Source: an uncultured Fibrobacteria bacterium (lineage in GTDB: Bacteria > Fibrobacterota > Fibrobacteria > UBA11236). Taken from it: a stretch of DNA of 64,000 bases. The stretch covers positions 1,876,402 to 1,940,401 of the forward strand of contig OY970309.1 of the NCBI GenBank assembly GCA_963716395.1, in the 5' to 3' direction. The position numbers and the translations under genes were made by a program. The notes under the pieces were generated by a model. That model ran no database searches. It was not told where the DNA came from and saw only the letters and a program-made list of their open reading frames with translations. This document shows positions 5,779 through 63,357 of the stretch, piece after piece. How positions within the stretch are numbered: the first letter of the stretch is position 1; each line of letters opens with the position of its first letter.

Positions 5779-6108
5779 GGAATCCCGATCTAACGGATTT
5801 TGGCGAAACTTTCCATGCATACCGGAATTCGCTGTGCCTGCAATAATAAAACCGCGCGGAATCGAAGCCGATGTCGTGAGCTTCGCACCGGCGCCGAATC
5901 GGTGCGGGTTTTTCCGGGGGCTATCCACCCATCAGCCTTGGCTCTGGATTCACCACTGGAAAATTCTCCGTGCATGGCCCCGGAATCGGCGCTGCGCATT
6001 TTTACACTTTTCCAGGAAGAACGGCATGCCACAATTTTCGCTTTCCCATCCGGGTTCGCATCCGCCGGCTCCGGCGGTCCCGACGCGCAAGAAGACGCTC
6101 CCTTCGGC

Positions 6109-9100
6109 ATGAAACCGCGCGCCTTCAAACGCCAGCCGCGTTGGTATCTCGACGCCGTCATTTACCAGGTGCATGTCAAAAGCTTTTTCGACGGCAACGA
6201 AGACGGTTCGGGCGATCTGCCCGGTCTGATCCAAAAACTTGATTACATCCGCGAGCTGGGCGTGACGGCTTTGTGGTTGTTGCCGTTCTACCCGAGCCCG
6301 TTGCGCGACGACGGCTACGACATTTCCGACTACATGGGCGTACACCCGACCTACGGCACGCTCGACGACTTCCGCACTTTGCTGCAAGAGGCGCATGCCC
6401 GCGGCATCTACGTCATCACCGAACTGGTGATCAACCACACTTCGGATCAGCATCCCTGGTTCCAGCGCGCCCGAGTCGCGGCGCCGGGATCGACCGAGCG
6501 CGATTTCTACGTGTGGAGCGACGATCCCGAACGCTACCAGGACGCGCGCATCATCTTCAAGGATTTCGAACCGTCGAACTGGACCTGGGATTCCATCGGC
6601 AACGCCTATTACTGGCATCGCTTCTACAGCCACCAGCCCGATCTCAATTTCGACAGCCCGGCCGTGCACGAGGCCGTGCTGCAGGTGCTGGATTTCTGGC
6701 TGGGCATGGGCGTCGACGGCCTGCGGCTCGACGCCGTGCCTTACCTGTATGAACGCGAAGGCACCTCGTGCGAAAACCTGCCCGAGACGCACGCCTTTCT
6801 GCGCAAGCTCTCGGCCTATGTGCGCAAGCATTACGATGAGCGCATGCTCCTGGCCGAGGCCAACCAATGGCCCGAAGATGCGGCCGCGTATTTCGGCAAG
6901 GGCGACGAGTGCCAAATGGCCTTCCACTTTCCTCTCATGCCGCGGCTGTACATGGCCGTAGCCATGGAAGACCGCTTTCCCATCGTCGACATTCTCGAAC
7001 AGACGCCGCAGCTTCCCGAAGGCTGCCAATGGGCGATCTTTTTGCGCAACCACGACGAGCTGACGCTGGAAATGCTCACCGACGAAGAGCGCGACTACAT
7101 GGTGCGCGTGTATGCGCACGACCGCCGCGCGCGCATCAACCTCGGCATCCGCCGCCGGCTGGCGCCGCTCATGGCCAACAACCGCCGCAAGCTCGAACTG
7201 CTCAACAACCTGCTGCTCTCGCTGCCGGGCGCGCCGATTCTGTATTACGGCGACGAGATCGGCATGGGCGACAACTTCTACCTCGGCGACCGCAACGGCG
7301 TACGCACGCCCATGCAATGGAGTCCGGATCGCAATGCGGGGTTTTCCCGCGCCAATTCGCAGCGCCTGTTTCTGCCGGTTATCATCGATCCCGAATACCA
7401 TTACGAAACCGTCAACGTGGAAAACCAGGAGCACAACCCGAGTTCCCTGCTCTGGTGGCTGCGGCGGCGCATCGCCCTGCGCAACCGGCACGCCGTGTTC
7501 AGCCGCGGCGAAACGGTGTTCCTGGCTTCGGACAACGTGCGCGTGCTGGCCTTTTTGCGCCGCGCCCACGACGACGCGGTGCTCGTGGTCGCCAATCTTT
7601 CCGAGCACCCGCAGACCGCGGCGCTGGGTCTGGCCGAATGGGCCGGCAGCCGGCCCATCGAATTGACGGGGCAGACGCCGTTTCCGGCCGTCGAGGCCGA
7701 TCCGTATCGCGTCATGCTGGGATCTTACGACGTGATTTGGCTCAAGCTCTCGGCGCCGGGCGAAGCGGTCGAGCCCGATCGCTTCCAGATCCGTTCCCTG
7801 CCGCCGGCACGGAATTGGCGCGACCTGCTGCATCCTTCGCGCATCGATTTGTGGCAGTCGGCGCTGCCGTTGTGGCTTTCGAAATCCGGCCTGGCCGAAG
7901 CCAGCCTTGAACCTGTCTGCCATTTCGCCTTGCCCGGCCTGCCGCCCGAGTCGGCGGCTTTGGTGTTGGCGCGCAATACCTCGGCGCAGGGAAACGGAAG
8001 CTGGATGGCGTTGCCGCTCATGTTCGTCGAGGCCGCGGCGTCGCCGCCGCCTCCGGCGGCCGTGGTGGCGCGGGTACAGAACGGCAGCAAAAGCGGATGG
8101 CTTTGCGATGCGGCCTCGCATCCCGACGGCGCGGCCGCGTTGGCGCGCATGCTCATCACACCCTCCAGTTTGCAGGGGCCGCACGGTGTTTTAAAAGCCT
8201 GGTCGCCCCACCCGCTCGCCGACGTACCCGAGGATTTGAATCTGCGCACCGTGCCCTTGGCCGAAAATTCATCGCGCAGCGCCACGATTTCGTTTCAGGA
8301 TTTCGGCGTGCTCAAGTGGTTTCGCCAATTGCCCGAAGGCGTGCATCCCGATCCCGAAATCACCTTGTTTCTCGGCGAATGGGCGCATTTCGAAGGCGCG
8401 CCCCGCGTGCTGGGCATGCTCGAATGGCAGCCCGAAGGCGGCGAGACCTGTACCGTGGCCTATTTGCAGCAATGGGTGCGCGCGGATCGCAGCGCCTGGG
8501 ATTTGTTCTGCGACGTGCTGGCCAAAGCCATTGAGTCGGTCGAAGTCGACGGCCGCCTGTGGAGCCAGCCTCCGGCCCTGGGTAATTATGCGCGTCCATC
8601 CGATTTCGAAACCTGGGCCGAACCTTTGCAGGAGGCCCTGGGCGGACATGTGCGGGAATTTCTGATTCTCCTCGGCGAACGCGTGGCGGCCTTGCATCTG
8701 GCGTTGGCTTCGGATTCGGACGTGCCCGAATTCGAACCCGAACCGTTCACCTGGCATTACCAGCAGGCGGCGTTCCAGGCGATTCGCAGCCTGATGAACC
8801 GGCATTACTCGCGCTTGCAATACGCCGCGACCCATTGGGAGGCGCCACTGCGCGAGCTCGCGCAGGAAGTGCTGGAGGGCCGCGACGCCGTGCTGGCCCG
8901 CATCCGCCCGCTGCGCGAGCGGAAAATCGAAACCTCCAAGATCCGCATCCACGGCAACCTGACCTTGTCGCAAATCCTGTTCACCGGCAAAGACTTCGTT
9001 TTGCAGGCGTTCGAAGGCGACCCGCACTTCACGCCCGAAGAACGCCGGCACAAATACTCGGCGCTGCGCGATGTGGCCACCTTGATTCGGTCGTTTCAGG

Positions 9101-27651: not shown

Positions 27652-30351
27652 TTAATGCGCGTTCAACACCAAGCGGCGCCATACATGGCCGTCTGGTTGG
27701 CGTAATTGCAAGACCACCAAACCCTCGGACAGGCCGTGTAGGTCCACCGAGCTGCCGTCGGAGGCAGGCTGCAAGATCAAGCTGCTAACGCCGTGGCCGT
27801 TGATGGGGGTGACCGTCAATTGCGCCGCTTGCGACAGTCCAAAAAGACGGAAACGGCCGTTGCCCAGGTTTTGCAGGACAAGGTCCTTCGCCGCAGACGA
27901 CGGCCGGACGCCCGCATTCCCCGGTAAAATTTGAAAGACGTGATCGCTGAGGTCACGGGTACGCCCGAAATACTCATACACGGTGACCAGGCAGCGGTTT
28001 GAAACCAAGGATTTTCCATCCAAAGAATCGGGCAACTGGAAGGCGAAGCGGCCCCAATCGGCATCGCCGACGCGCACCGAACTGGTGCGGGTGAGGGGAA
28101 TCCAACTCGCGCCGCTATCCACGGAAAGCTCGATGCCAACCGAAAGCACCCACGACGTGTCGGCGGTCCAACGCACAATCAGGGAATCGCCGACTCGATA
28201 TTGCTCGCCCCCGTTGGGCGCATTCACCTGCACGGGTGTGGGCGCATCGCTGTAGGCTTCGATCGCGGCCAAGCCATAACCGCCGCCGTCGGCCGCGCTG
28301 AGCGAGATGCCGAGTCCGTTGCTGTCGGATACCGTGACATCCGTCTCAAAAATCATTGCCCCGATGGCACCCGCGGGCTTGGCCGGCGCCGCGAAGGGCG
28401 CTCCGATGGTTTGACCTTCGAGTCCCACGCTCAAACTTGAGGTTGCCTTCGCCGACGCATCGTTCAAGCTGGTGAAATGCAGACGCACGTGATAGCGGTT
28501 GTTGGGTACCGGCAGGGTCAAACCGGAAGGGCTGTTGCGATAGAGGCGGTAGGCGACCGCGGGAGCCGGGTCGATGACCGAATCCAGTTGCACGATGGTG
28601 TCGCTTTGCCGCACCAGCGGCATCGTACCCAGGAGGGAGGTATCCGGCAGCCAGCCCGCACCCAGGGCGGGTTCAGCGGCATAGCGCCATACGCCTTTGG
28701 CCACCACCACCGAAGTGGTGCACACCACGGCCCCTTCAGACCCGTAAGCGGAAAAGGTGTGGAAGACCTGGCTCGAATCCGCGGTGGCTTGTCCGCCGGA
28801 GGTGAGATGCAAACCGGAAGAACCGGTCCAGGTCAAGGGCGATGCCAAAGTCCAGGGCCGTCCGATTTGATCCTTTCCATCCGCCGCGAGCTGCACCGTG
28901 TCGCCCGGCCGGAGCACGGCCGTATGCGGACGCGGCACCAGGGTGGTGAGCGCCGGATTGGCATACAGGAAGGTTACGGTGTAAGCCGCTGAATCGACGC
29001 CCTGGCCATAGCTCAAAACCACACGGGCCCTATAACTTCCCAGGGGCAGATTTTTGCGGGTCACGGTGTTGACCACCTGCGGGGCATTGGTGCCATTGGC
29101 GAGAATCGTGACCCGCAGCCAGGTGGTGTCGGAATCGGGATAGGCGGCCGTCAACGGCGGCAAAACGCCATCGCCGGCGTTGGATACATGCGTCGTGTCG
29201 GGTCCAGGGTCGGCGCTGTCTTGCGGCAGCGCGGTGAACAGGAAGGCATCGCGATCCAGGCGAAGAGTGGCCGGGGTTACGCCGTTTTTGACCCACAGAT
29301 GCGGGGTCAGATTCACCCCGTCGCCTTCCAACACCCGCAGCAGGCGGCTGGGACCGGAGGTATCGATGCGCACGATGTAGAGATCGCCCGAATCGGCGAT
29401 ATCGACGTCTTTGGATCCGGTGGCCGTGAAATAGTCTTCGTCGGTGGACCATTCGGGGTTACCCCAGAATAGATTGCCGCTGCTGTCGTTGTTGCAGTTG
29501 TCACCGGGAATGCCCATGTACCAGAAGGGATGATCGATGTCGGGATCATTCCAACCCCGGATGAAAATAGCCTTGTGGTTGTCGTAAACCTTGCCCTCCA
29601 CCGTGCCTTGCCCCGAGGTCAAATACATCATGCGGTCCTGGCGCGTGGGATCGGTCGACATGCTGATCGAGGCGTTGCAACCCGACAGCCATCCCGAGGT
29701 CAGCCAGTTTTTCGAGGCCAGGTAGGCCGTATCGATTCGGGTGGAATCGAGTTCGTACATGCCGGTGCTGTGGTGTGACGAAGCGCCCCACCGCCCGTCG
29801 CGCGAGCGACCCGTCGACATCAGATAGGGCACCAGCATCGTGGCCGGCCCCAATGTGTCATGGCCGTTGACGATGCGCCGGATATAGGTGCCCCCGCTGG
29901 CGGGCGGCCAGGTGGGGTCATTGATGTCGCCCAAGGTGTAGGTCACGTATTCGTTCCCAGTGCCGGGTTGCACCCACCAATGGGGCTCCAACGATTCGCC
30001 GCTGGGACGATCCACGCTGCCGCAGTAAACCGCGTATTCGGTTTGCGAGTTCTCGACCAGGTCGCGCACGAACACGCTATCGAAGCGTTCGTAGAGCACG
30101 CGCGTTCCGTCCCAACTGATCATGGGGTTGGCGGCCTCGGTCGTGGCCACCCGGTGTTCCACCAGTACGCTGTCGTCAAAGTCGAGGTAATAAATCTGGT
30201 AGGTGTAGTCCCGGATGAACGCGACTTTGCCGGTGCGGCCGCCCAAAAAGGCGCGCACCTCCGGGCCGGTGACCAGGGCCTTGGCCTCCGCGGGCCGCCA
30301 GACCGACAGCATCGCCGCACCCACGGCGGCGGCCCACCCGAAAAATTTCAC
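27652..30351 (-). CDS. Large secreted multidomain protein (beta-propeller-like N-region, Ig-like repeats, possible C-terminal sorting domain)
   Basis: ORF 27652..30423; start placed at GTG (MKFFGWAAAVGAAMLSVWRPAEA signal peptide) overlapping the SGNH stop as GTGA; beta-rich repeats; C-terminal ~80 aa resemble a Por/T9SS-type sorting domain. Confidence 0.6.
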   Translation of the reverse strand: MKFFGWAAAVGAAMLSVWRPAEAKALVTGPEVRAFLGGRTGKVAFIRDYTYQIYYLDFDDSVLVEHRVATTEAANPMISWDGTRVLYERFDSVFVRDLVENSQTEYAVYCGSVDRPSGESLEPHWWVQPGTGNEYVTYTLGDINDPTWPPASGGTYIRRIVNGHDTLGPATMLVPYLMSTGRSRDGRWGASSHHSTGMYELDSTRIDTAYLASKNWLTSGWLSGCNASISMSTDPTRQDRMMYLTSGQGTVEGKVYDNHKAIFIRGWNDPDIDHPFWYMGIPGDNCNNDSSGNLFWGNPEWSTDEDYFTATGSKDVDIADSGDLYIVRIDTSGPSRLLRVLEGDGVNLTPHLWVKNGVTPATLRLDRDAFLFTALPQDSADPGPDTTHVSNAGDGVLPPLTAAYPDSDTTWLRVTILANGTNAPQVVNTVTRKNLPLGSYRARVVLSYGQGVDSAAYTVTFLYANPALTTLVPRPHTAVLRPGDTVQLAADGKDQIGRPWTLASPLTWTGSSGLHLTSGGQATADSSQVFHTFSAYGSEGAVVCTTSVVVAKGVWRYAAEPALGAGWLPDTSLLGTMPLVRQSDTIVQLDSVIDPAPAVAYRLYRNSPSGLTLPVPNNRYHVRLHFTSLNDASAKATSSLSVGLEGQTIGAPFAAPAKPAGAIGAMIFETDVTVSDSNGLGISLSAADGGGYGLAAIEAYSDAPTPVQVNAPNGGEQYRVGDSLIVRWTADTSWVLSVGIELSVDSGASWIPLTRTSSVRVGDADWGRFAFQLPDSLDGKSLVSNRCLVTVYEYFGRTRDLSDHVFQILPGNAGVRPSSAAKDLVLQNLGNGRFRLFGLSQAAQLTVTPINGHGVSSLILQPASDGSSVDLHGLSEGLVVLQLRQPDGHVWRRLVLNAH

Positions 30352-31055
30352 CGGAGCACCGCTGCGATGGAATCGGCCAGAATCGAGGCGATGGCTGCAT
30401 GGCCGTGATTGCCGGGATGCCATTGGATGGCAGGATCGGCATAGCCCGAGTTATAAGCGTAGTTGGCGGAGTCTTTGGCGAGGGCCGTGATATCGACGAG
30501 ATGGACATCGTCAATTCCCTGCATGGCCTGGAGAACCGCGGCCGTGCGGAGGGCTGTCAGGGTCGTGTCGTTCCATACCGACAGGCAGAAAATGGGGAAG
30601 TCGCCGCCTTGCCGCAGGGCCCACAAAAGTTCGCGATATTGAAAGAGAAGTTGGCCGGTTTCCACTTCGAGGTCATTCGAATTCTCGCCCAATTGCACCA
30701 CCACCCAGCGCGGATGGGCTTGGGTCAGGTCCCAAGTCACATTGTGAAAATGTTCGTCGATGGGGCCGTCGCAAACCTCGCAGTCGCGGCGGCCATAGAA
30801 GATGCCCGCGGCGACGCCGAGTGGCTGCAAATCGCGGATGGTGGAATGGACGTAATCGCTGTCCGGAACCGTGGCTGCCATGCCGTTCTCTTGGCTCCAA
30901 CCGATGGACGGCAGCGAATCGTGCAAGGTGATGCTATTACCCAAAAACAGCACATTCGGCGGTTGTGTTTGCGTGTTGAACATGCAGGCCTGCAGGATCG
31001 AAATCCCGATCCAGGCAACCCCCCCACAACTTAAGATACGCAAGGGCCACCTCAT
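30348..31055 (-). CDS. SGNH/GDSL-family hydrolase
   Basis: ORF 30348..31217; start placed at Met 55 (signal peptide MRWPLRILSCGGVAWIGISILQAC); GDS(L)-like block LFLGNSIT and C-terminal HPGNHGH. Confidence 0.75.
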   Translation of the reverse strand: MRWPLRILSCGGVAWIGISILQACMFNTQTQPPNVLFLGNSITLHDSLPSIGWSQENGMAATVPDSDYVHSTIRDLQPLGVAAGIFYGRRDCEVCDGPIDEHFHNVTWDLTQAHPRWVVVQLGENSNDLEVETGQLLFQYRELLWALRQGGDFPIFCLSVWNDTTLTALRTAAVLQAMQGIDDVHLVDITALAKDSANYAYNSGYADPAIQWHPGNHGHAAIASILADSIAAVLR

Positions 31056-33097: not shown

Positions 33098-34651
33098 TTA
33101 TTCCACCGCAAAAATCCGGTAATCAAAAACATTTTGTTGCCAGGGTAATGCGGAAGGTTTGTCCTTCCCCGTGTAAATCGCTTCAAAGAGGGGGGAAAGT
33201 TTTTGGGCGTCTGGATTTAATACCACAAAACGAACTCCACGACGCTTACAGGCGGAAATGAAATCCGCCATCGAATCCACGGGAAACTCCGGAAACTCCC
33301 GATTGTACAAATACGTTCCCCAACGCGGCGCGCCCCCATTGAAATACGGTATTTGATCGGGTAAAGTGCGGAAATACAAATCGAAGTCGCTGGTAAAAAC
33401 CTGAGTCGCTTTCCGCACTCCTAGGTCGCGCAGGTCGGCCTCAATGGCATGAAAGTCCCGTTGCAGGGTAGAGCGCTTCTCAAGCAAACGAAAATCCCGC
33501 AGGAGATTCACCCCAAGCATCAAGGCCACCAGAGTCCAGGCGCCCCAGGTCACCCACGCCGTCCTCCGATGGGAGAGAACATTCCCGTCGAATCGGTATT
33601 CCCATGCCGTCAGCATCACCATTCCCAAGGCCAGCATGGATAGTGGCAACGCCAGTAAAATTTGCCTTCCACTCGTGGTCGCGGAAAACATCAGAAAATA
33701 AATTGCCTCCCATGCCGCCACGATCCGCATCATCCATTTCCGCTGCGGGTGACGAACCCACAGAGCGGCGATGAGGGGCGGCCCATAGGCCTGTTTAAAA
33801 GACCATAGGGCCGTCAGATATTTTTTTAGGAATAACGCCGGATCCCCGGCGATGATGGCTCCAACCGAACCGGGCAATTTCAAATCCAAGGTGCGATGCC
33901 AGTTGATTCCATACATCAAGTCGTACACATTCATGGGACCGAATTGGGTTTCCAACAGGCCATGACCGCTGGCGAGGTTCACGGCCCATTGCAGGCTATA
34001 GACCGTGAACACACCCGCCGAAACCGTGGCCATCGTTTTCCAAAGTTGGGGACGTATCACCACAATCGCCAGCACCAACATGCCATCGGCCACCAAAACA
34101 TGGTAACGGAACAACGCCCCCAAACCCAGCAGGAATCCCGCCGCCAGGAAACCCCGGCTGGGTGCGGCCTGGGGCGAATCGAAGAGCCGAGAGAAAATCA
34201 GCGCGATCCCGGCGGTGAAAAAAAACAAGGCCGCCGGATCGCCGCCCCCCGCGTTCATGTAATGGAAGAACTGCACGAACAGCGAAAGTGACACCAAGGA
34301 CAGCAAGGCGAATCCCGGCGGCAGGATTTTACGGAACAGCCAACCCGAAACCGCGAGGGTCAGGGTTCCGAAGGCGACATTGACCAGAATGGCGGGACCC
34401 GCGGGATTTCCATCGCCCAGGATGAGTTTGAGCAGCAAGCCGCATCCCACCGGGTATTGCGGGTTAAACCACGATTGCCGATCCGCCCAATGCAAATGCC
34501 GGGCGTAAAACACCGTGTCCCAAAAATCATTGTGGTATTGCTGGAAATCCAAACCCCAATTCAATGCCAACGACCCAAGCGCGAAACACAGGGGAACGAT
34601 TAACCAGCCATAGCACAAAATGCCACGAGGTCTGCTGGCAGGACTATGCAA
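33098..34651 (-). CDS. Polytopic membrane glycosyltransferase (ArnT/PMT-like, GT39/GT83-type), putative
   Basis: ORF 33098..34846; about 10 TM segments followed by a soluble C-terminal domain; start tentatively placed at in-frame TTG overlapping the GT2 stop. Confidence 0.55.
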   Translation of the reverse strand: MHSPASRPRGILCYGWLIVPLCFALGSLALNWGLDFQQYHNDFWDTVFYARHLHWADRQSWFNPQYPVGCGLLLKLILGDGNPAGPAILVNVAFGTLTLAVSGWLFRKILPPGFALLSLVSLSLFVQFFHYMNAGGGDPAALFFFTAGIALIFSRLFDSPQAAPSRGFLAAGFLLGLGALFRYHVLVADGMLVLAIVVIRPQLWKTMATVSAGVFTVYSLQWAVNLASGHGLLETQFGPMNVYDLMYGINWHRTLDLKLPGSVGAIIAGDPALFLKKYLTALWSFKQAYGPPLIAALWVRHPQRKWMMRIVAAWEAIYFLMFSATTSGRQILLALPLSMLALGMVMLTAWEYRFDGNVLSHRRTAWVTWGAWTLVALMLGVNLLRDFRLLEKRSTLQRDFHAIEADLRDLGVRKATQVFTSDFDLYFRTLPDQIPYFNGGAPRWGTYLYNREFPEFPVDSMADFISACKRRGVRFVVLNPDAQKLSPLFEAIYTGKDKPSALPWQQNVFDYRIFAVE

Positions 34652-35405
34652 GGCGCGGGGGCCTTTCCCGGAATAAACGGGATCGCCGCCAACCCCGCCG
34701 GTGCAACAGGTAAACGATTGAGGTCGCCACCACGCCCAATCCGTAGTAAACGCTGGCGCCGAATTTAATGGTAGACGCTTCCGGAAAATACTTGGTGGGG
34801 CAGGTGATTTCGGCGATGGAAAAACCGCGCTGGAAAATCTGGACAATCATCTGGTTGTCGAACAGAAACCCATTGGAATTGGCATGGTAATTCACGGAGG
34901 CCAGTACTTCCTTGGAATAAGCCCGGTACCCGGTGTGGTACTCCGATAGTTTTTGCCCTAAGCAAAGGTTTTGCAGCAAAGTGAGGAACCGATTGGCCGC
35001 ATACTTGTAGCGCGGCATTCCGCCCCGCAAGGCCTGGCCGCCGAGAATACGCGAACCAAAGACCACGGGGTACACGCCGTTTGCAATTACGCTGGCCATG
35101 GCCGACACCAGTTTCGGGGTGTATTGGTAATCGGGGTGGATCATGATGACCATATCCGCGCCCAGTTCCAACGCCTTGTCATAGCACGTTTTTTGGTTGC
35201 CACCGTATCCGCGTCGATGATCATGCACGACGACATGTCGGATCCCCAACGTCACCGCAAGCGCGGAGGTTTCATCCACGCTCGCGTCGTCCACCAAGAC
35301 CACGTCGTCGACGATATCGAAGGGCAATTCTCGGTAAGTTTTTTCCAGGGTGGCCGCCGCGTTCAGCGCGGGCAAAACCACTACCAATTTTTTACCGAGG
35401 AGCAT
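34644..35405 (-). CDS. GT2 polyprenol-phosphate glycosyltransferase (ArnC/DPM1/GtrB-like)
   Basis: 253 aa; GT-A signature (VVLVDDASVDET...DADMVIMIHPDYQYTP). Confidence 0.9.
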   Translation of the reverse strand: MLLGKKLVVVLPALNAAATLEKTYRELPFDIVDDVVLVDDASVDETSALAVTLGIRHVVVHDHRRGYGGNQKTCYDKALELGADMVIMIHPDYQYTPKLVSAMASVIANGVYPVVFGSRILGGQALRGGMPRYKYAANRFLTLLQNLCLGQKLSEYHTGYRAYSKEVLASVNYHANSNGFLFDNQMIVQIFQRGFSIAEITCPTKYFPEASTIKFGASVYYGLGVVATSIVYLLHRRGWRRSRLFRERPPRLA

Positions 35406-59165: not shown

Positions 59166-59358
59166 GCGGTGCTCCGCGCTCAGAATAACCCGAGAAAGAG
59201 ACGGCGGCAAGGCGGATGCGGGGCCGTGGCCGGCTGCCCCGCTTTTTCCCTGTCGGCGAGGAAAAATTTTCAGGCCAGAGAAACGTTGACGGGTTTAAGA
59301 TTGAGATTTAGTCTTAATCATGAGGTCCGGTTTCCCTTCCAAATTGCAAGGAGTCTGT

Positions 59359-60561
59359 ATGTCCCATCCCGTTCCCATCCTGAAGCCCGAGCCCGCCGCC
59401 CGGGCGCCTTTCCCTCGCCGGTTTACTCTCGGCCTCGCCTGCGCCGTGGGCGTCGCCTTGTCGGCCACTCCCGCCTCGGCCGATTCGGCCCCTTCCCTCG
59501 GCGGCTATGGCGAAATCGCCTACAATCATTATCCGCGGGGCGCCGACCGGGACCAGGCCGATCTCAAACGCTTCGTGATTTTCCTCGGCTACGGCTTCAA
59601 CGATCAATGGAGCTTTAACAGCGAGGTGGAATGGGAGCACGCGGTGGCCAGCGCCGACGACTTGGGCGAAAGCGAGATTGAACAGGCCTATTTGAATTAT
59701 CAATTTGCGCCGTCGCTGAACCTCAAGACCGGACTTTTCTTGATGCCGTTCGGGCTTCTCAACCAGGCGCATGAACCGCCGGTTTTCTACGGTGTCGAGC
59801 GCAACGAGGTGGAAACCCGCATCATTCCCAGCACTTGGCGCGAAGGCGGCATCGGCCTTTCCGGCAACACCGCCCTCGGCCTCGACTTCGACGCCGGCGT
59901 CACCACCGGTTTCGACGTCGCCAAATTCGACGATCCCGGGTCGCCCCTGAGCTCGATGCATCAGGAATTGCAACTTGCCAAGGCCAATGATCTGGCGGCG
60001 TACGGGGCCCTAAACTACCGCGGCCTTCCGGGGTTCACCCTCGGAGGCGCGTTGTTTACCGGTAATTCGGGGCAAAGCAATGCCGATTTCGAATCCGATC
60101 AATCCGGGCCCGATTTCTCCGGCATCAACGGCCGCATCTTTTTATGGGACGGCCATACCCGCTGGCAAAAAAAAGGCTGGGATCTGGAAGCCGTCTATGC
60201 CCAAGGTGTGATCGGCGAGGCGGATCGCATCGACGCGCAATTGCAGGCCTTTAACGCTGCGAACAACGATGATCGCCCCTATGTGCCGGATCAATTCTAT
60301 GGTTGGTTGGTGCAAGGCGCGTACACGGTTTTCCGGCATGGGGATCTTTCTTTGGCCCCTTTTCTGCGCTACGAACAGTATGACACGCAACTGAAAATGC
60401 CGGCGGGATTCACGTACGATCCTACGAATGCCGACCGCGTGACCACGGCGGGTTTTTCCTTTAAACCTCTGTCGCAGGTGGTGTTCAAAGCCGATTATCA
60501 GTATTACAAGGATCATACCGACAATAGCCGCTTCAACCTCGGCCTCGGGTACATGTTTTAA
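59359..60561 (+). CDS. Outer membrane beta-barrel protein (porin-like)
   Basis: ORF 59320..60561; start placed at Met 14 behind AAGGAG; signal peptide; alternating beta-strand pattern; C-terminal ...GLGYMF. Confidence 0.65.
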   Translation: MSHPVPILKPEPAARAPFPRRFTLGLACAVGVALSATPASADSAPSLGGYGEIAYNHYPRGADRDQADLKRFVIFLGYGFNDQWSFNSEVEWEHAVASADDLGESEIEQAYLNYQFAPSLNLKTGLFLMPFGLLNQAHEPPVFYGVERNEVETRIIPSTWREGGIGLSGNTALGLDFDAGVTTGFDVAKFDDPGSPLSSMHQELQLAKANDLAAYGALNYRGLPGFTLGGALFTGNSGQSNADFESDQSGPDFSGINGRIFLWDGHTRWQKKGWDLEAVYAQGVIGEADRIDAQLQAFNAANNDDRPYVPDQFYGWLVQGAYTVFRHGDLSLAPFLRYEQYDTQLKMPAGFTYDPTNADRVTTAGFSFKPLSQVVFKADYQYYKDHTDNSRFNLGLGYMF

Positions 60562-60577
60562 GATTCGGGAGGATGTT

Positions 60578-61093
60578 GTGAGACACAGCGCGTGGGTCTG
60601 GCTTCCCGTGGCCGCCATTTCCACCTCGGTTTACGCCAAAACCTATTTCACCGTGGCCGAGGCCCAGCAAGCGATCTTTCCCGGGGAAAAACTCACCCCC
60701 GACTTCCTCACTTTGAGCGACTCGCAGGCGGCGCTCATCGCCAAACGAACCGGACAGGACGTGATCCACCGGCAGATCAAGGCGTGGAAAGTCGCCGGGG
60801 GCGGGTGGTTCATCGTCGACGAAGTGGTGGGCAAGCACGAGCTCATCACCTATGCCGTCGGCCTGAACCCGGACGGCAGCGTCAAGCAAATCGAAATCAT
60901 GGATTACCGCGAATCCTACGGCTATGAGATTCGCAACGCCAGATGGCTGCGGCAATTCGCGGGCAAGACGGCGGCCGATCCGGTTATGCTGAACCAGGAT
61001 ATCGGCAATATCAGCGGCGCCACCCTTTCTTCGCGGCACGTGACCGAAGGCGTCCGGCGCGTGCTGGCAACCTATGCCGTCGCGCTCAAATAG
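60578..61093 (+). CDS. Secreted FMN-binding domain protein (flavinylation substrate)
   Basis: 171 aa; signal peptide; FMN_bind-like fold with NISGATLSSR, the S/T-G-A-T motif flavinylated by ApbE-type transferases. Confidence 0.75.
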   Translation: MRHSAWVWLPVAAISTSVYAKTYFTVAEAQQAIFPGEKLTPDFLTLSDSQAALIAKRTGQDVIHRQIKAWKVAGGGWFIVDEVVGKHELITYAVGLNPDGSVKQIEIMDYRESYGYEIRNARWLRQFAGKTAADPVMLNQDIGNISGATLSSRHVTEGVRRVLATYAVALK

Positions 61094-61976
61094 CCTGGAG
61101 CGCGCCCGTCCCCTGCTGGGGACTTTGGTCATGATTCGCGTCGAAGCGGCCGCGGATCGCCCGGCCTTGGCGGCGGCGGTGGATCAGGCTTTTGCCGCGG
61201 TCGAACGCGTGGAGCGTCGCATGAGTTTCCACGACAGTAACAGCGATGTTTCCCATATCAACGCCGCCGCGGCCGGAGGCGAAATTTCCGTCGACCCGGA
61301 AACGATGCGGGTCCTGTCGTTCGCCTTCGTTCTGGGCGAGCTTTCCCGCGGAGCGTTCGATATCGCGGCGGCCCCGGCGCTGGTGCGGGCGGGATTTCTG
61401 CCGGCGCGACCGCCCCGCGCAAGGCCCGGTGCAGATGCCACCTTCCGCGACTTGGAATTGCTCGACGACCGCCGCGTCCGGTGGAAGCGCAAGGGATGGA
61501 TCGATTTGGGGGGCATTGCCAAAGGGTATGCCGTCGATCGCGCCGTCGCAGTGCTGCAAGCGCAGGGCGTGGCGCATGGCGTGGTCAATGCCGGCGGAGA
61601 TTTGCGCTGCTTCGGCCGGCCGCAACCCGTCGCCGTCCGCCATCCCGAGGCGCTGGCCGCCCGCATCCCGTTGGGAAAGCTGTCCAACCGCGCCTTGGCG
61701 ACTTCCGGCGGATATTATTCCAGCGGCGCAGACGGCGGACGTCGGGTGGAGCCCCTGGTCGATCCCAAGCGGCAGGCCTGCACGACCTGGGGCGCCAGCG
61801 TGAGCGTCGCGGCCTCCGATTGCATGACCGCCGACGCGCTGACCAAGGTCGTGCGCCTGGCTCCGCGGCGTACTCCGGAAATCCTGGCGCGCTTTCACGC
61901 CCAGGCTTTCGTGTTGCGCCGCAACCGCCTGCGTTGTTGCGGCGAGATGATTCTGCAACCGGAAACCGCAAAGTGA
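61074..61976 (+). CDS. apbE: FAD:protein FMN transferase (ApbE family)
   Basis: 300 aa; ApbE motifs (LLGTLVMIRV, DLGGIAKGYAVD); overlaps the FMN-binding gene by 20 nt; no obvious signal peptide from this start. Confidence 0.85.
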   Translation: MPSRSNSLERARPLLGTLVMIRVEAAADRPALAAAVDQAFAAVERVERRMSFHDSNSDVSHINAAAAGGEISVDPETMRVLSFAFVLGELSRGAFDIAAAPALVRAGFLPARPPRARPGADATFRDLELLDDRRVRWKRKGWIDLGGIAKGYAVDRAVAVLQAQGVAHGVVNAGGDLRCFGRPQPVAVRHPEALAARIPLGKLSNRALATSGGYYSSGADGGRRVEPLVDPKRQACTTWGASVSVAASDCMTADALTKVVRLAPRRTPEILARFHAQAFVLRRNRLRCCGEMILQPETAK

Positions 61977-61999
61977 CGTCCCCGCGTTCCTCCTCGCCC

Positions 62000-62467
62000 A
62001 TGCGCCTGAGCCGCCGGCATGAACGCTGGGTCTACGGCATAGGCGGCCTCCTGTTTCTTTCCGGCGTGGGCTGGCTGATCGCCCATTATTTCCTGGCCAA
62101 GCCCGACGCCTTCGGAAATTCCTTTCATCCCTCCGAACCCTGGTGGCTGCGCCTGCACGGCGCGGCGGCCATGGGATTTCTGCTGGTGCTCGGTTCCCTG
62201 TTCCCTCGGCATCTCGTTCCTGCCTGGAGGGTGCGCAGGAATTTCCGCAGCGGTCTCGGCGTGATTGGGGTGATGGCCTTGCTGATCGCCACCGGATACG
62301 GGTTGTACTACGCCGCCGGCGAACAATCCCGGCCCTGGATCAGCGCCATCCACTGGATAATTGGCTTGCTGGCCGCGCTGATCGTGCCGTGGCATGCCTG
62401 GAGGGGAAAGCGGACCCGAGGCGTGCGCCCCGCCGCCTCCGCGCCCCGCGGTCCCCGGTCCCGGTGA
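62000..62467 (+). CDS. Small polytopic membrane protein (DUF4405-like, possible heme-binding), putative
   Basis: 155 aa from the ATG (in-frame GTG at 61973 would give GTGA coupling to apbE); 3-4 TM helices with conserved-looking His/Trp (HYF, WW, HWIIG). Confidence 0.5.
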   Translation: MRLSRRHERWVYGIGGLLFLSGVGWLIAHYFLAKPDAFGNSFHPSEPWWLRLHGAAAMGFLLVLGSLFPRHLVPAWRVRRNFRSGLGVIGVMALLIATGYGLYYAAGEQSRPWISAIHWIIGLLAALIVPWHAWRGKRTRGVRPAASAPRGPRSR

Positions 62468-62643: not shown

Positions 62644-63357
62644 GTGCCGGCATGCGCGGCATTCTGGAGGGCACGATTGACGGCTGGGAAAAATGTCCCA
62701 AAACCCAACGCCGGGCGGAGGTTTTATCCCCGACGGCGTCCTCAAGGCGGGCCGGTAGAGAGCGGGCGACATTTTTCCGGCCGGTTGGGGTTGGGGTTGG
62801 GATTTTGCCTGTTTGCGGCCGGGGCTTCGTTCGCCGGTCCGGAAGGCACCAATCGTTTTGGTGTCAATCTGGAATTCGTGGGCTTGACCTATCACCCGGG
62901 CGGGGGGGAAAACGAAGGTTATCCGCGGCAGCTTGATGACGGGGCCTATTGGGTGTTGCTGTTGGGGGCGCAGGTCGACGCGGACTGGTATTTCCACAAG
63001 TATGGATTGCTCCGGGCCTCCGTGGCCTTGAACAAGGATTGCGCCGATGTGTGGTCGGGCTTCTTCCATCTGGGTCCCCGCCTCAATCTTCCCTGGGGTC
63101 CGCACTTCGTTTTCCGCATCGGCATCGGCCCCACCTTGGTGTGGCGGCAGAATTGGTACGGAGTGGTGGCGGGCTATACGCATGACAGTTTTTACGGCCA
63201 AGGGACAAGCGGCGCCTTCCAGTCGCGGTTTATATGGTATGGCGGGAACATCGATCTGGAATGGAAGGTGAAACGCAATATCAGTCTGGTCTACGGCAAT
63301 ATCCCGGGTTACCCCCACGTCATCACCAGCAGTTTCGGCGCCCGATACAGTTTTTAA
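62644..63357 (+). CDS. Small outer-membrane beta-barrel protein (PagL/OmpW-like?)
   Basis: Signal peptide GRLGLGLGFCLFAAGASFA; amphipathic beta strands; C-terminal aromatic ...RYSF; start codon uncertain (no in-frame ATG near the signal peptide). Confidence 0.45.
   Translation: MPACAAFWRARLTAGKNVPKPNAGRRFYPRRRPQGGPVESGRHFSGRLGLGLGFCLFAAGASFAGPEGTNRFGVNLEFVGLTYHPGGGENEGYPRQLDDGAYWVLLLGAQVDADWYFHKYGLLRASVALNKDCADVWSGFFHLGPRLNLPWGPHFVFRIGIGPTLVWRQNWYGVVAGYTHDSFYGQGTSGAFQSRFIWYGGNIDLEWKVKRNISLVYGNIPGYPHVITSSFGARYSF

Follow-up and report, generated by a model that had tools for sequence, protein, structure and literature searches.

A four-gene operon in an uncultured Fibrobacteria bacterium encodes a candidate self-contained extracytoplasmic electron-transfer module

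We analyzed a four-gene operon in a 64,000-nucleotide (nt) stretch of DNA from an uncultured Fibrobacteria bacterium (contig OY970309.1 of assembly GCA_963716395.1), a stretch that we call the window and in whose numbering all positions are given. An initial annotation, made from the sequence alone, had proposed that these genes form an extracytoplasmic flavinylation module consisting of a porin-like outer-membrane protein, a secreted protein that binds flavin mononucleotide (FMN), an ApbE flavin transferase and a small membrane protein. The open reading frame (ORF) table and the sequence place the four genes at the positions that had been assigned to them, and the locus contains the following features (lengths of proteins in amino acids, aa):

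59166-59358, intergenic region of 193 nt between the divergent CDF gene and the porin gene
59243-59266, intergenic, inverted repeat TTTTTCC-N10-GGAAAAA
59295-59317, intergenic, inverted repeat TTAAGA-N11-TCTTAA
59348-59353, + strand, ribosome-binding site AAGGAG of the porin gene, 5 nt before the ATG
59359-60561, + strand, porin-like outer-membrane beta-barrel, 400 aa (Pfam OMP_b-brl, 3.3e-10)
60578-61093, + strand, FMN_bind protein, 171 aa, GTG start (Pfam FMN_bind, 6.1e-11)
60998-61024, + strand, flavinylation motif DIGNISGAT, aa 141-149 of the FMN_bind protein
61074-61976, + strand, ApbE-family flavin transferase, 300 aa (Pfam ApbE, 1.9e-49)
61752-61754, + strand, codon for Pro227 of ApbE, at the position of the catalytic His257 of Vibrio cholerae ApbE
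62000-62467, + strand, four-helix inner-membrane protein, predicted di-haem cytochrome b, 155 aa (weak match to Pfam DUF4405)

The porin, FMN_bind, ApbE and 155-aa cytochrome genes form one operon. Only 16 nt separate the porin gene from the FMN_bind gene, the ATG of the ApbE gene lies 20 nt inside the FMN_bind gene, and a gap of 23 nt precedes the gene for the 155-aa protein; the ORF coordinates thus bear out the 20-nt overlap reported earlier, just as the strong ribosome-binding site that had been noted before the porin gene is present. The divergent upstream gene encodes a CDF/ZitB-like transporter according to both Pfam and NCBIfam. The source DNA has a GC content of ~62%, and among named organisms the module proteins have their best relatives in Burkholderiales.

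We found the two central proteins to be clear members of their families. When compared with profile hidden Markov models, the 171-aa protein reached 43.3 bits for FMN_bind (PF04205; cut-off 22 bits) and the 300-aa protein 169 bits for ApbE (PF02424; cut-off 25.6 bits, profile positions 1-256 of 266 covered), both above the curated Pfam thresholds. The sequence DIGNISGAT of the FMN_bind protein fits the flavinylation motif D-x-x-[S/T]-G-A-[S/T] described in PMC12052999, with Thr149 as the acceptor, and the ISGAT part aligns with the flavinylated ITGAT of RnfG. Hence the SGAT motif of the initial annotation is a canonical site, and across 70 loci all intact orthologues (69/69) retain its acceptor Thr, with rare S-to-G or A-to-T changes at the other motif positions. 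The N-terminus of the window protein has a predicted cleavage site after VYA at aa 20, and the orthologues of every lineage share a variable hydrophobic N-terminus of ~20 aa that ends in AxA, after which the mature protein begins with the conserved pattern (T/V/K)Y(F/L/M)T-x-EQAQ, with one locus (L072) showing a Tat-like form of the leader, RRRFLGG. We take this pattern as a predicted Sec-type leader; a simple hydropathy score fails to separate this N-terminus from that of ApbE. The FMN_bind fold and a flavinylation motif on a C-terminal Thr are shared with RnfG and NqrC, whose N-terminus is an anchor whereas that of the window protein resembles a cleavable leader. An assignment of the 171-aa protein as an RnfG/NqrC equivalog was rejected, as its scores against the NCBIfam models (17-22 bits) fall far below the cut-offs (102-230 bits) and the other Rnf/Nqr subunits are found neither in the window nor in the related flanks. 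A Pfam scan of ~37 window ORFs likewise returned no Nqr, Rnf, NosR/Nos or periplasmic reductase, in line with the earlier statement that the usual partners of flavinylated FMN-binding domains are missing here.

The gene arrangement recurs across phyla. Scanning one genome per GTDB species yielded 69 loci, hosted by Burkholderiales, Bradyrhizobium, Verrucomicrobia (mostly Candidatus Udaeobacter), Binatia and a few other lineages. Upon counting adjacencies in the 59 loci with room on both sides, we obtained the following:

ApbE gene adjacent to FMN_bind gene, 53/59 loci
cytochrome gene adjacent to FMN_bind gene, 55/59 loci
ApbE and cytochrome genes both adjacent, 51/59 loci
outer-membrane barrel gene adjacent, 47/59 loci (43 DUF6662, 6 window porin family, 2 both)

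Among the 150 flanking genes of the 27 loci outside Verrucomicrobia, Pfam revealed no recurring reductase, Nqr, Rnf, NosR, PepSY or MsrQ neighbour; the only recurrent items were DUF6662, DUF1353 together with ABC-transporter genes in a second clade described below, and sporadic FTR1 and ExbB. That nothing else recurs in the flanks indicates that the module is self-contained. In Udaeobacter, the four genes lie between rpoC or a cobalamin adenosyltransferase gene and rpsB-tsf, and a module framed by rpoC, rpsB and tsf must be complete on its own. Homologous clusters are thus not tied to Nqr, Rnf or NosR operons, and the domain matches, the invariant acceptor Thr, the synteny across phyla and the lack of such partners together support the initial proposal of an extracytoplasmic flavinylation module. 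Two neighbours of the window module, the CDF gene and the downstream ORF of 226 aa, were also considered as parts of it and rejected, because neither stands beside it in any related locus. A second clade of the FMN_bind-ApbE-cytochrome trio (L056-L067, metagenome-assembled genomes of Burkholderiales, 40-45% identity) has the order cytochrome-FMN_bind-ApbE, has no adjacent barrel, lies amid genes for DUF1353 proteins and branched-chain-type ABC transporters, and lacks ApbE in three loci. In two Bradyrhizobium loci (L053, L054), there are two FMN_bind paralogues each, of which one adjoins DUF6662 only and the other lies on the opposite strand with porin, ApbE and cytochrome genes.

Modeling of the 155-aa protein, for which three or four transmembrane (TM) segments had been suggested, predicted four helices (5-32, 46-77, 82-105 and 111-140) at an AlphaFold pLDDT (predicted local distance difference test) of 88.7. 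Among 52 homologues, His29, His53, His71, His118 and His132 are invariant and His7 is nearly so. The basic N-terminus, second loop and tail predict, by the positive-inside rule, an N-in/C-in topology. In that orientation, His29, His53 and His118 would lie towards the periplasmic side of the membrane and His7, His71 and His132 towards the cytoplasmic side, two groups at opposite faces, as expected for two stacked b haems. When the homologues were scanned singly, 23/52 matched Ni_hydr_CYTB (prokaryotic cytochrome b561; best 2e-8) and 15/52 DUF4405, and Foldseek returned as best match the cytochrome b of Escherichia coli hydrogenase-1 (4gd3_A, probability 0.93), with HyaC, CybB and FdnI as the nearest natural folds. 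These cytochromes are of similar size and are likewise four-helix bundles with His ligands near both membrane faces, but their sequence similarity to the 155-aa protein is marginal, the six conserved His residues here follow another pattern, and they serve hydrogenase, formate dehydrogenase or superoxide while the partner here is a flavoprotein. We predict membership in the di-haem cytochrome b clan (Ni_hydr_CYTB/DUF4405), and the protein would accordingly bind haem. A conserved periplasmic loop, HPSEPWWLRLHG, is a candidate interface for direct electron transfer to the flavoprotein. At a threshold of E<=1e-10, a profile search of 1.84 billion representatives retrieved 1,220 relatives, almost all of them 140-200 aa long, which amounts to a family of ~1,200 clusters at 50% identity; most of its members lack a precomputed Pfam match. 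The initial annotation had found neither donor nor acceptor of electrons evident: the predicted cytochrome b would supply a membrane electron conduit and makes the membrane end of the path less obscure.

The first gene encodes a porin-like protein, as had been proposed, on the strength of both a domain match and a barrel model. The protein scores 40.8 bits against OMP_b-brl (cut-off 28.7) and, in the window copy, 19.4 bits against Porin_O_P (cut-off 20.9), a family that is annotated on most homologues. Its signal peptide ends at about aa 41, between PASA and DS, and its C-terminus reads GLGYMF. The AlphaFold2 model (mean pLDDT 82) has ~16 strands and finds OmpC, OprP, OprO and other trimeric porins at E 1e-12 to 1e-11 in Foldseek, while a search with the sequence profile returned no relatives in the PDB. 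With a mean column identity of 54%, invariant acidic and His positions and the motifs SEVEWEH, HEPPVFYGVERNEVETRIIPSTWREGG and HQELQLAKA, the family is unusually conserved, as is DUF6662 (54-55% for the two). Distant homology between the two barrel families was tried and discarded (hhalign probability 3%), and neither contains a flavinylation motif of the kind present in DUF3570. Most porin homologues have an N-terminal coiled coil that is missing in the window copy, which instead has a long N-terminal region with PRRFTLGL.

The ApbE protein departs from the familiar picture in two ways. The window protein has no signal peptide, with an in-frame stop ~10 codons upstream of its ATG; in all lineages, an in-frame stop stands a few codons before the start, and the protein begins ~10 residues before the conserved RRARPLLGT strand. 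No member of the clade thus has space for a leader, and the missing signal peptide noted earlier is a clade-wide property. Upon alignment to the structures 6nxi (V. cholerae) and 1vrm, residue 12 of the window protein fell on residue 12 of the signal-less V. cholerae crystal construct. The FAD/Mg motif DLGGIAKG is conserved, including in the window (K in 62/62 orthologues), as are the equivalents, in V. cholerae numbering, of Ser241 (ATSG, 60/62) and Asp285 (ADAL, 62/62), both present in the window protein. By contrast, Pro227 aligns to His257 of 6nxi and to the His-His of 1vrm, and this position is Pro in 40/62 orthologues and His in only 5/62. In V. cholerae, His257 is described as the general base (PMC12052999) and belongs to a proposed Asp-Ser-His triad. 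A His in the motif MSFH (window His53), aligned to the Tyr of MSTY, is found in 59/62 orthologues, and this clade-specific residue may be a candidate to compensate for the lost His257 equivalent. The ApbE start is coupled to the FMN_bind stop in three geometries, namely an overlap of 20-23 nt (frame +1), an ATGA overlap of 4 nt (frame +2) and a short gap, and the differing overlaps and relative frames argue for translational coupling rather than a frameshift fusion. A programmed frameshift by which ApbE would borrow the leader of FMN_bind was rejected, since the junction frame varies between clades and a stop closes the ApbE frame upstream. It is a real puzzle that, in several phyla, an ApbE without a leader is tightly coupled to a substrate predicted to have one. 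Cytosolic ApbEs exist for cytoplasmic substrates, as in Klebsiella pneumoniae, where an ApbE that likewise has no signal peptide flavinylates a soluble fumarate reductase (PMC12052999); there, however, the substrate is cytoplasmic, whereas the substrate linked to the window ApbE has a predicted Sec-type leader and the window enzyme has its general-base His replaced.

We found signs of iron control in several related loci. Scoring promoters against the 19-nt Fur consensus GATAATGATAATCATTATC with 300 shuffles, we obtained matches of 14-15/19 upstream of the operon in five betaproteobacterial loci (L007, L008, L010, L074 from Ralstonia, and L076), values that 0/300 shuffles reached, and borderline matches (p about 0.05) in L002 (Burkholderia) and L005 (Variovorax). 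A near-perfect box, ATTAATGATTATCATTAAG, precedes the DUF6662 gene of L076, and FTR1 is adjacent there, just upstream, as well as in two further loci. Iron control is plausible in several Betaproteobacteria, and it is neither universal nor established for the window locus. In L076, the DUF6662 gene (6083-6989) is split into 111-aa and 198-aa parts by a frameshift or an assembly error, with the porin gene downstream and FTR1 upstream. In Udaeobacter (L015, L017, L019, L024, L028 and others), ~40-110 nt upstream of DUF6662, we observed the palindrome GGATTGCGCTGCAATCC and the sigma-54-like element TTGGCAACCGTCCGGCAGC (GG-N10-GC), which suggests enhancer-dependent control of the module in Verrucomicrobia. 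The intergenic region of the window has no sigma-70 consensus promoter. Both inverted repeats reported for this region exist, yet they carry no statistical weight: with arms of 6-7 nt, we estimate that chance would give about 2 and 0.5 such pairs per region of this kind, and the promoters of the closest orthologues do not share them. They were accordingly dismissed as an operator, and the metal- or redox-responsive control that had been read from them is unproven here, the CDF gene with which they are shared not being a conserved neighbour.

We propose that the operon encodes a self-contained extracytoplasmic electron-transfer module with ferric iron as the likeliest substrate, the best explanation of the data and, taken whole, one that we regard as somewhat probable; the module architecture by itself we consider likely, while the iron-reduction role by itself is a tentative and still doubtful part of the proposal. 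The 155-aa protein would be an N-in/C-in four-helix cytochrome b, with a cytoplasmic-face haem held by His7, His71 and His132 and a periplasmic-face haem by His29, His53 and His118, that would link the quinone pool, or a donor in the cytoplasm, to the periplasm by electron transfer. There, its partner would be the Sec-exported FMN_bind protein, carrying FMN that would be phosphoester-linked to Thr149 and installed by the co-translated ApbE. The outer-membrane barrel, a 16-stranded porin here and DUF6662 in most relatives, would let the substrate in, most likely ferric iron or a ferric chelate that would be reduced to Fe(II) for uptake in a form of reductive iron assimilation, although another periplasmic oxidant or metal might serve. 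Ferric iron leads as the acceptor because of the Fur-box-like sites in the five betaproteobacterial orthologues and the FTR1 genes adjacent in a few. The proposed mechanism follows the logic of flavinylation-associated cytochromes (PepSY, MsrQ, DUF4405) and of iron-assimilation clusters reported by the Light laboratory (PMC8238504, PMC11334425), and would differ from these known systems in the type of cytochrome, the obligatory barrel and the leaderless, His-less ApbE.

Several observations weigh against this proposal. The best Fur box of the window promoter reaches 11/19 (p=0.28 against shuffles), and an alignment with the corresponding sites of L008 and L010, which are Fur-like, shows that this promoter has kept the left half and lost the right. 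The Irr iron control element (ICE) is absent from the Bradyrhizobium orthologues, and the Udaeobacter loci share the sigma-54-like -24/-12 element and palindrome instead; these two findings show that iron control is not universal. The Burkholderia diffusa context (bufferin, chromate, CzcD) and the CDF gene of the window point to other metals. The window cytochrome itself scores 18.7 bits against DUF4405 (PF14358; cut-off 26.7) and does not match Ni_hydr_CYTB (PF01292), and four-helix bundles are structurally generic. Close porin homologues occur in unrelated contexts in Dyella and in a metagenome, which means that the porin family is not dedicated to the module. Finally, as the ApbE is predicted to be cytoplasmic and has no His257 equivalent, how this enzyme could flavinylate an exported substrate, or whether it does, is in doubt.

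This last point allows for a different role of the co-encoded ApbE, which might be not the modifier but a cytoplasmic FAD-binding partner, pseudoenzyme or FAD hydrolase at the cytoplasmic face of the cytochrome, with another secreted ApbE modifying FMN_bind. Consistent with this, ApbE is leaderless in all clades and has Pro at the general-base position in most orthologues, four loci (L009, L056, L059, L064) have a motif-bearing FMN_bind gene without an adjacent ApbE gene, so that flavinylation in trans is possible, and the close coupling in translation suggests that ApbE is made in stoichiometric, not catalytic, amounts. We nevertheless find it somewhat unlikely, as the clade conserves the FAD/Mg motifs and the counterparts of Ser241 and Asp285, the gene adjoins a substrate with a near-invariant motif in 53/59 loci, and the ApbE fold is not known to have a redox role. 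Alternatively, the cytoplasmic, translationally coupled ApbE may attach FMN at D-x-x-S-G-A-T before or during Sec targeting, with translocation to follow, and would do so with an altered catalytic centre (His257 replaced by Pro, plus the new MSFH His). We regard such pre-export flavinylation as unlikely; a Salmonella ApbE expressed in the cytosol did not complement (PMC12052999). If true, pre-export flavinylation would sidestep the problem of delivering FAD to a periplasmic ApbE, a route that is still obscure (PMC12052999).

The same architecture could also serve in metal or oxidant stress, by reducing or detoxifying Cu(II), chromate, quinones or reactive oxygen species or by repairing oxidised periplasmic components. 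The B. diffusa module lies between a bufferin operon (a copper RiPP, that is, a ribosomally synthesised and post-translationally modified peptide) with ECF sigma/NrsF and the ChrBA and CsoR-CzcD genes, the window module is divergent from a CDF/ZitB-like efflux gene, and the superoxide oxidase CybB is among the structural relatives of the cytochrome. Yet neither CDF nor any metal-resistance gene is a conserved neighbour, and the Fur-like boxes found in five orthologues suggest a response to a lack of iron, not to an excess of metal, which leaves this role rather unlikely in our view. Electrons might instead flow in reverse, with the periplasmic flavoprotein oxidising a reductant and passing electrons through cytochrome b to quinone, as in FdnI, HyaC and CybB; indeed, the closest folds and the Pfam family (Ni_hydr_CYTB: HyaC, FdnI, CybB) all deliver periplasmic electrons to quinone. 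Flavinylated FMN_bind systems, characterised and proposed, mostly send electrons outward (PMC8238504), however, and no dehydrogenase partner is encoded near the module, which renders this direction improbable. Lastly, barrel and flavoprotein could together form a conduit across the outer membrane to extracellular acceptors, a flavin analogue of the MtrAB porin-cytochrome complex, a notion encouraged by a barrel from one of two unrelated families beside the trio in 47/59 loci, by the unusual conservation of both families and by the known flavinylated outer-membrane-type protein DUF3570 (PMC8238504). We consider it very improbable, because neither barrel has a flavinylation motif, a 16-stranded OmpC/OprP-like pore is narrow for a domain of ~150 aa, the second trio clade has no adjacent barrel and the hosts are aerobic soil heterotrophs.

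The closest described systems are the flavinylation-associated DUF4405 cytochromes (Huang et al. 2024, mSystems, PMC11334425), in which a haem-b membrane protein with conserved central His residues is encoded beside apbE and its substrate, like the window module, in clusters that contain no Nqr, Rnf, NapH, PepSY, MsrQ or DsbD, and for which a role as transmembrane electron conduit was proposed. The DUF4405 proteins have six TM helices and four His, are paired with Flavodoxin_4 and a flavin transporter, and were tested in a Firmicute. In contrast, the window cytochrome has four helices and scores below the cut-offs of both families, its own family matching Ni_hydr_CYTB better than DUF4405, and the window module has an FMN_bind substrate, an outer-membrane barrel in the unit and a leaderless ApbE. 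Extracytoplasmic FMN_bind and ApbE proteins also occur, as here, in the PepSY-like and P19/FTR1 flavinylated iron-assimilation clusters (Meheust et al. 2021, eLife, PMC8238504), which are associated with iron-uptake genes and Fur control and were proposed to act as periplasmic ferric reductases. The window module differs from them in having no PepSY, P19 or TonB receptor, in a membrane part that is a cytochrome b561-type bundle, and in FTR1 being adjacent in few loci. The 2021 survey dropped proteins without a predicted signal peptide (PMC8238504) and the 2024 survey took Pfam DUF4405 at E<=0.001 (PMC11334425); given these filters and the lack of a precomputed Pfam match on most of the cytochromes, the module probably escaped both. 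In the literature that we searched, no paper mentions DUF6662, none joins ApbE, cytochrome b561 and FMN-binding, and nothing relevant was found on iron regulation of such a cluster.

In the extracytoplasmic redox chemistry of bacteria, flavinylated proteins of the periplasm are emerging as a counterpart to cytochromes c, and thousands of genomes carry flavinylation components without an assigned system (PMC8238504). The module described here is compact, with all four parts identifiable, and has a wide phylogenetic range that includes Burkholderia, Ralstonia, Variovorax, Bradyrhizobium, Ca. Udaeobacter and Binatia. It lends itself to experiments in model bacteria that live in soil or with plants. 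If it acts as a ferric reductase, it would provide dominant soil lineages with siderophore-independent iron acquisition. Furthermore, the combination of a leaderless, His-less ApbE with a substrate predicted to be exported bears on two questions raised in a 2025 review (PMC12052999), namely the site of flavinylation and the route of FAD to the enzyme.

A few further features were noted in the related loci and in the window. In three B. diffusa loci (L002-L004), the module lies directly downstream of the bufferin operon (BufA1, MbnB, HvfC, DoxX) with its ECF sigma/NrsF pair, and the chromate ChrBA and CsoR-CzcD genes are nearby, the whole forming a metal-homeostasis neighbourhood. Elsewhere in the window, the Pfam scan identified RND efflux components, an amylase, a TonB receptor, polysaccharide genes, dnaE, a sugar ABC transporter and tsaD. 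The 226-aa ORF downstream of the module (62677-63357, + strand) has an outer-membrane-barrel-like C-terminus, ...GARYSF, and no Pfam or NCBIfam match. Two larger ORFs on the - strand, of 923 aa (27652-30423) and 582 aa (33098-34846), match no Pfam family at E<=1e-4; the former is coding-like, with a high GC content at third codon positions, and the latter lies in a stretch of lower GC content.

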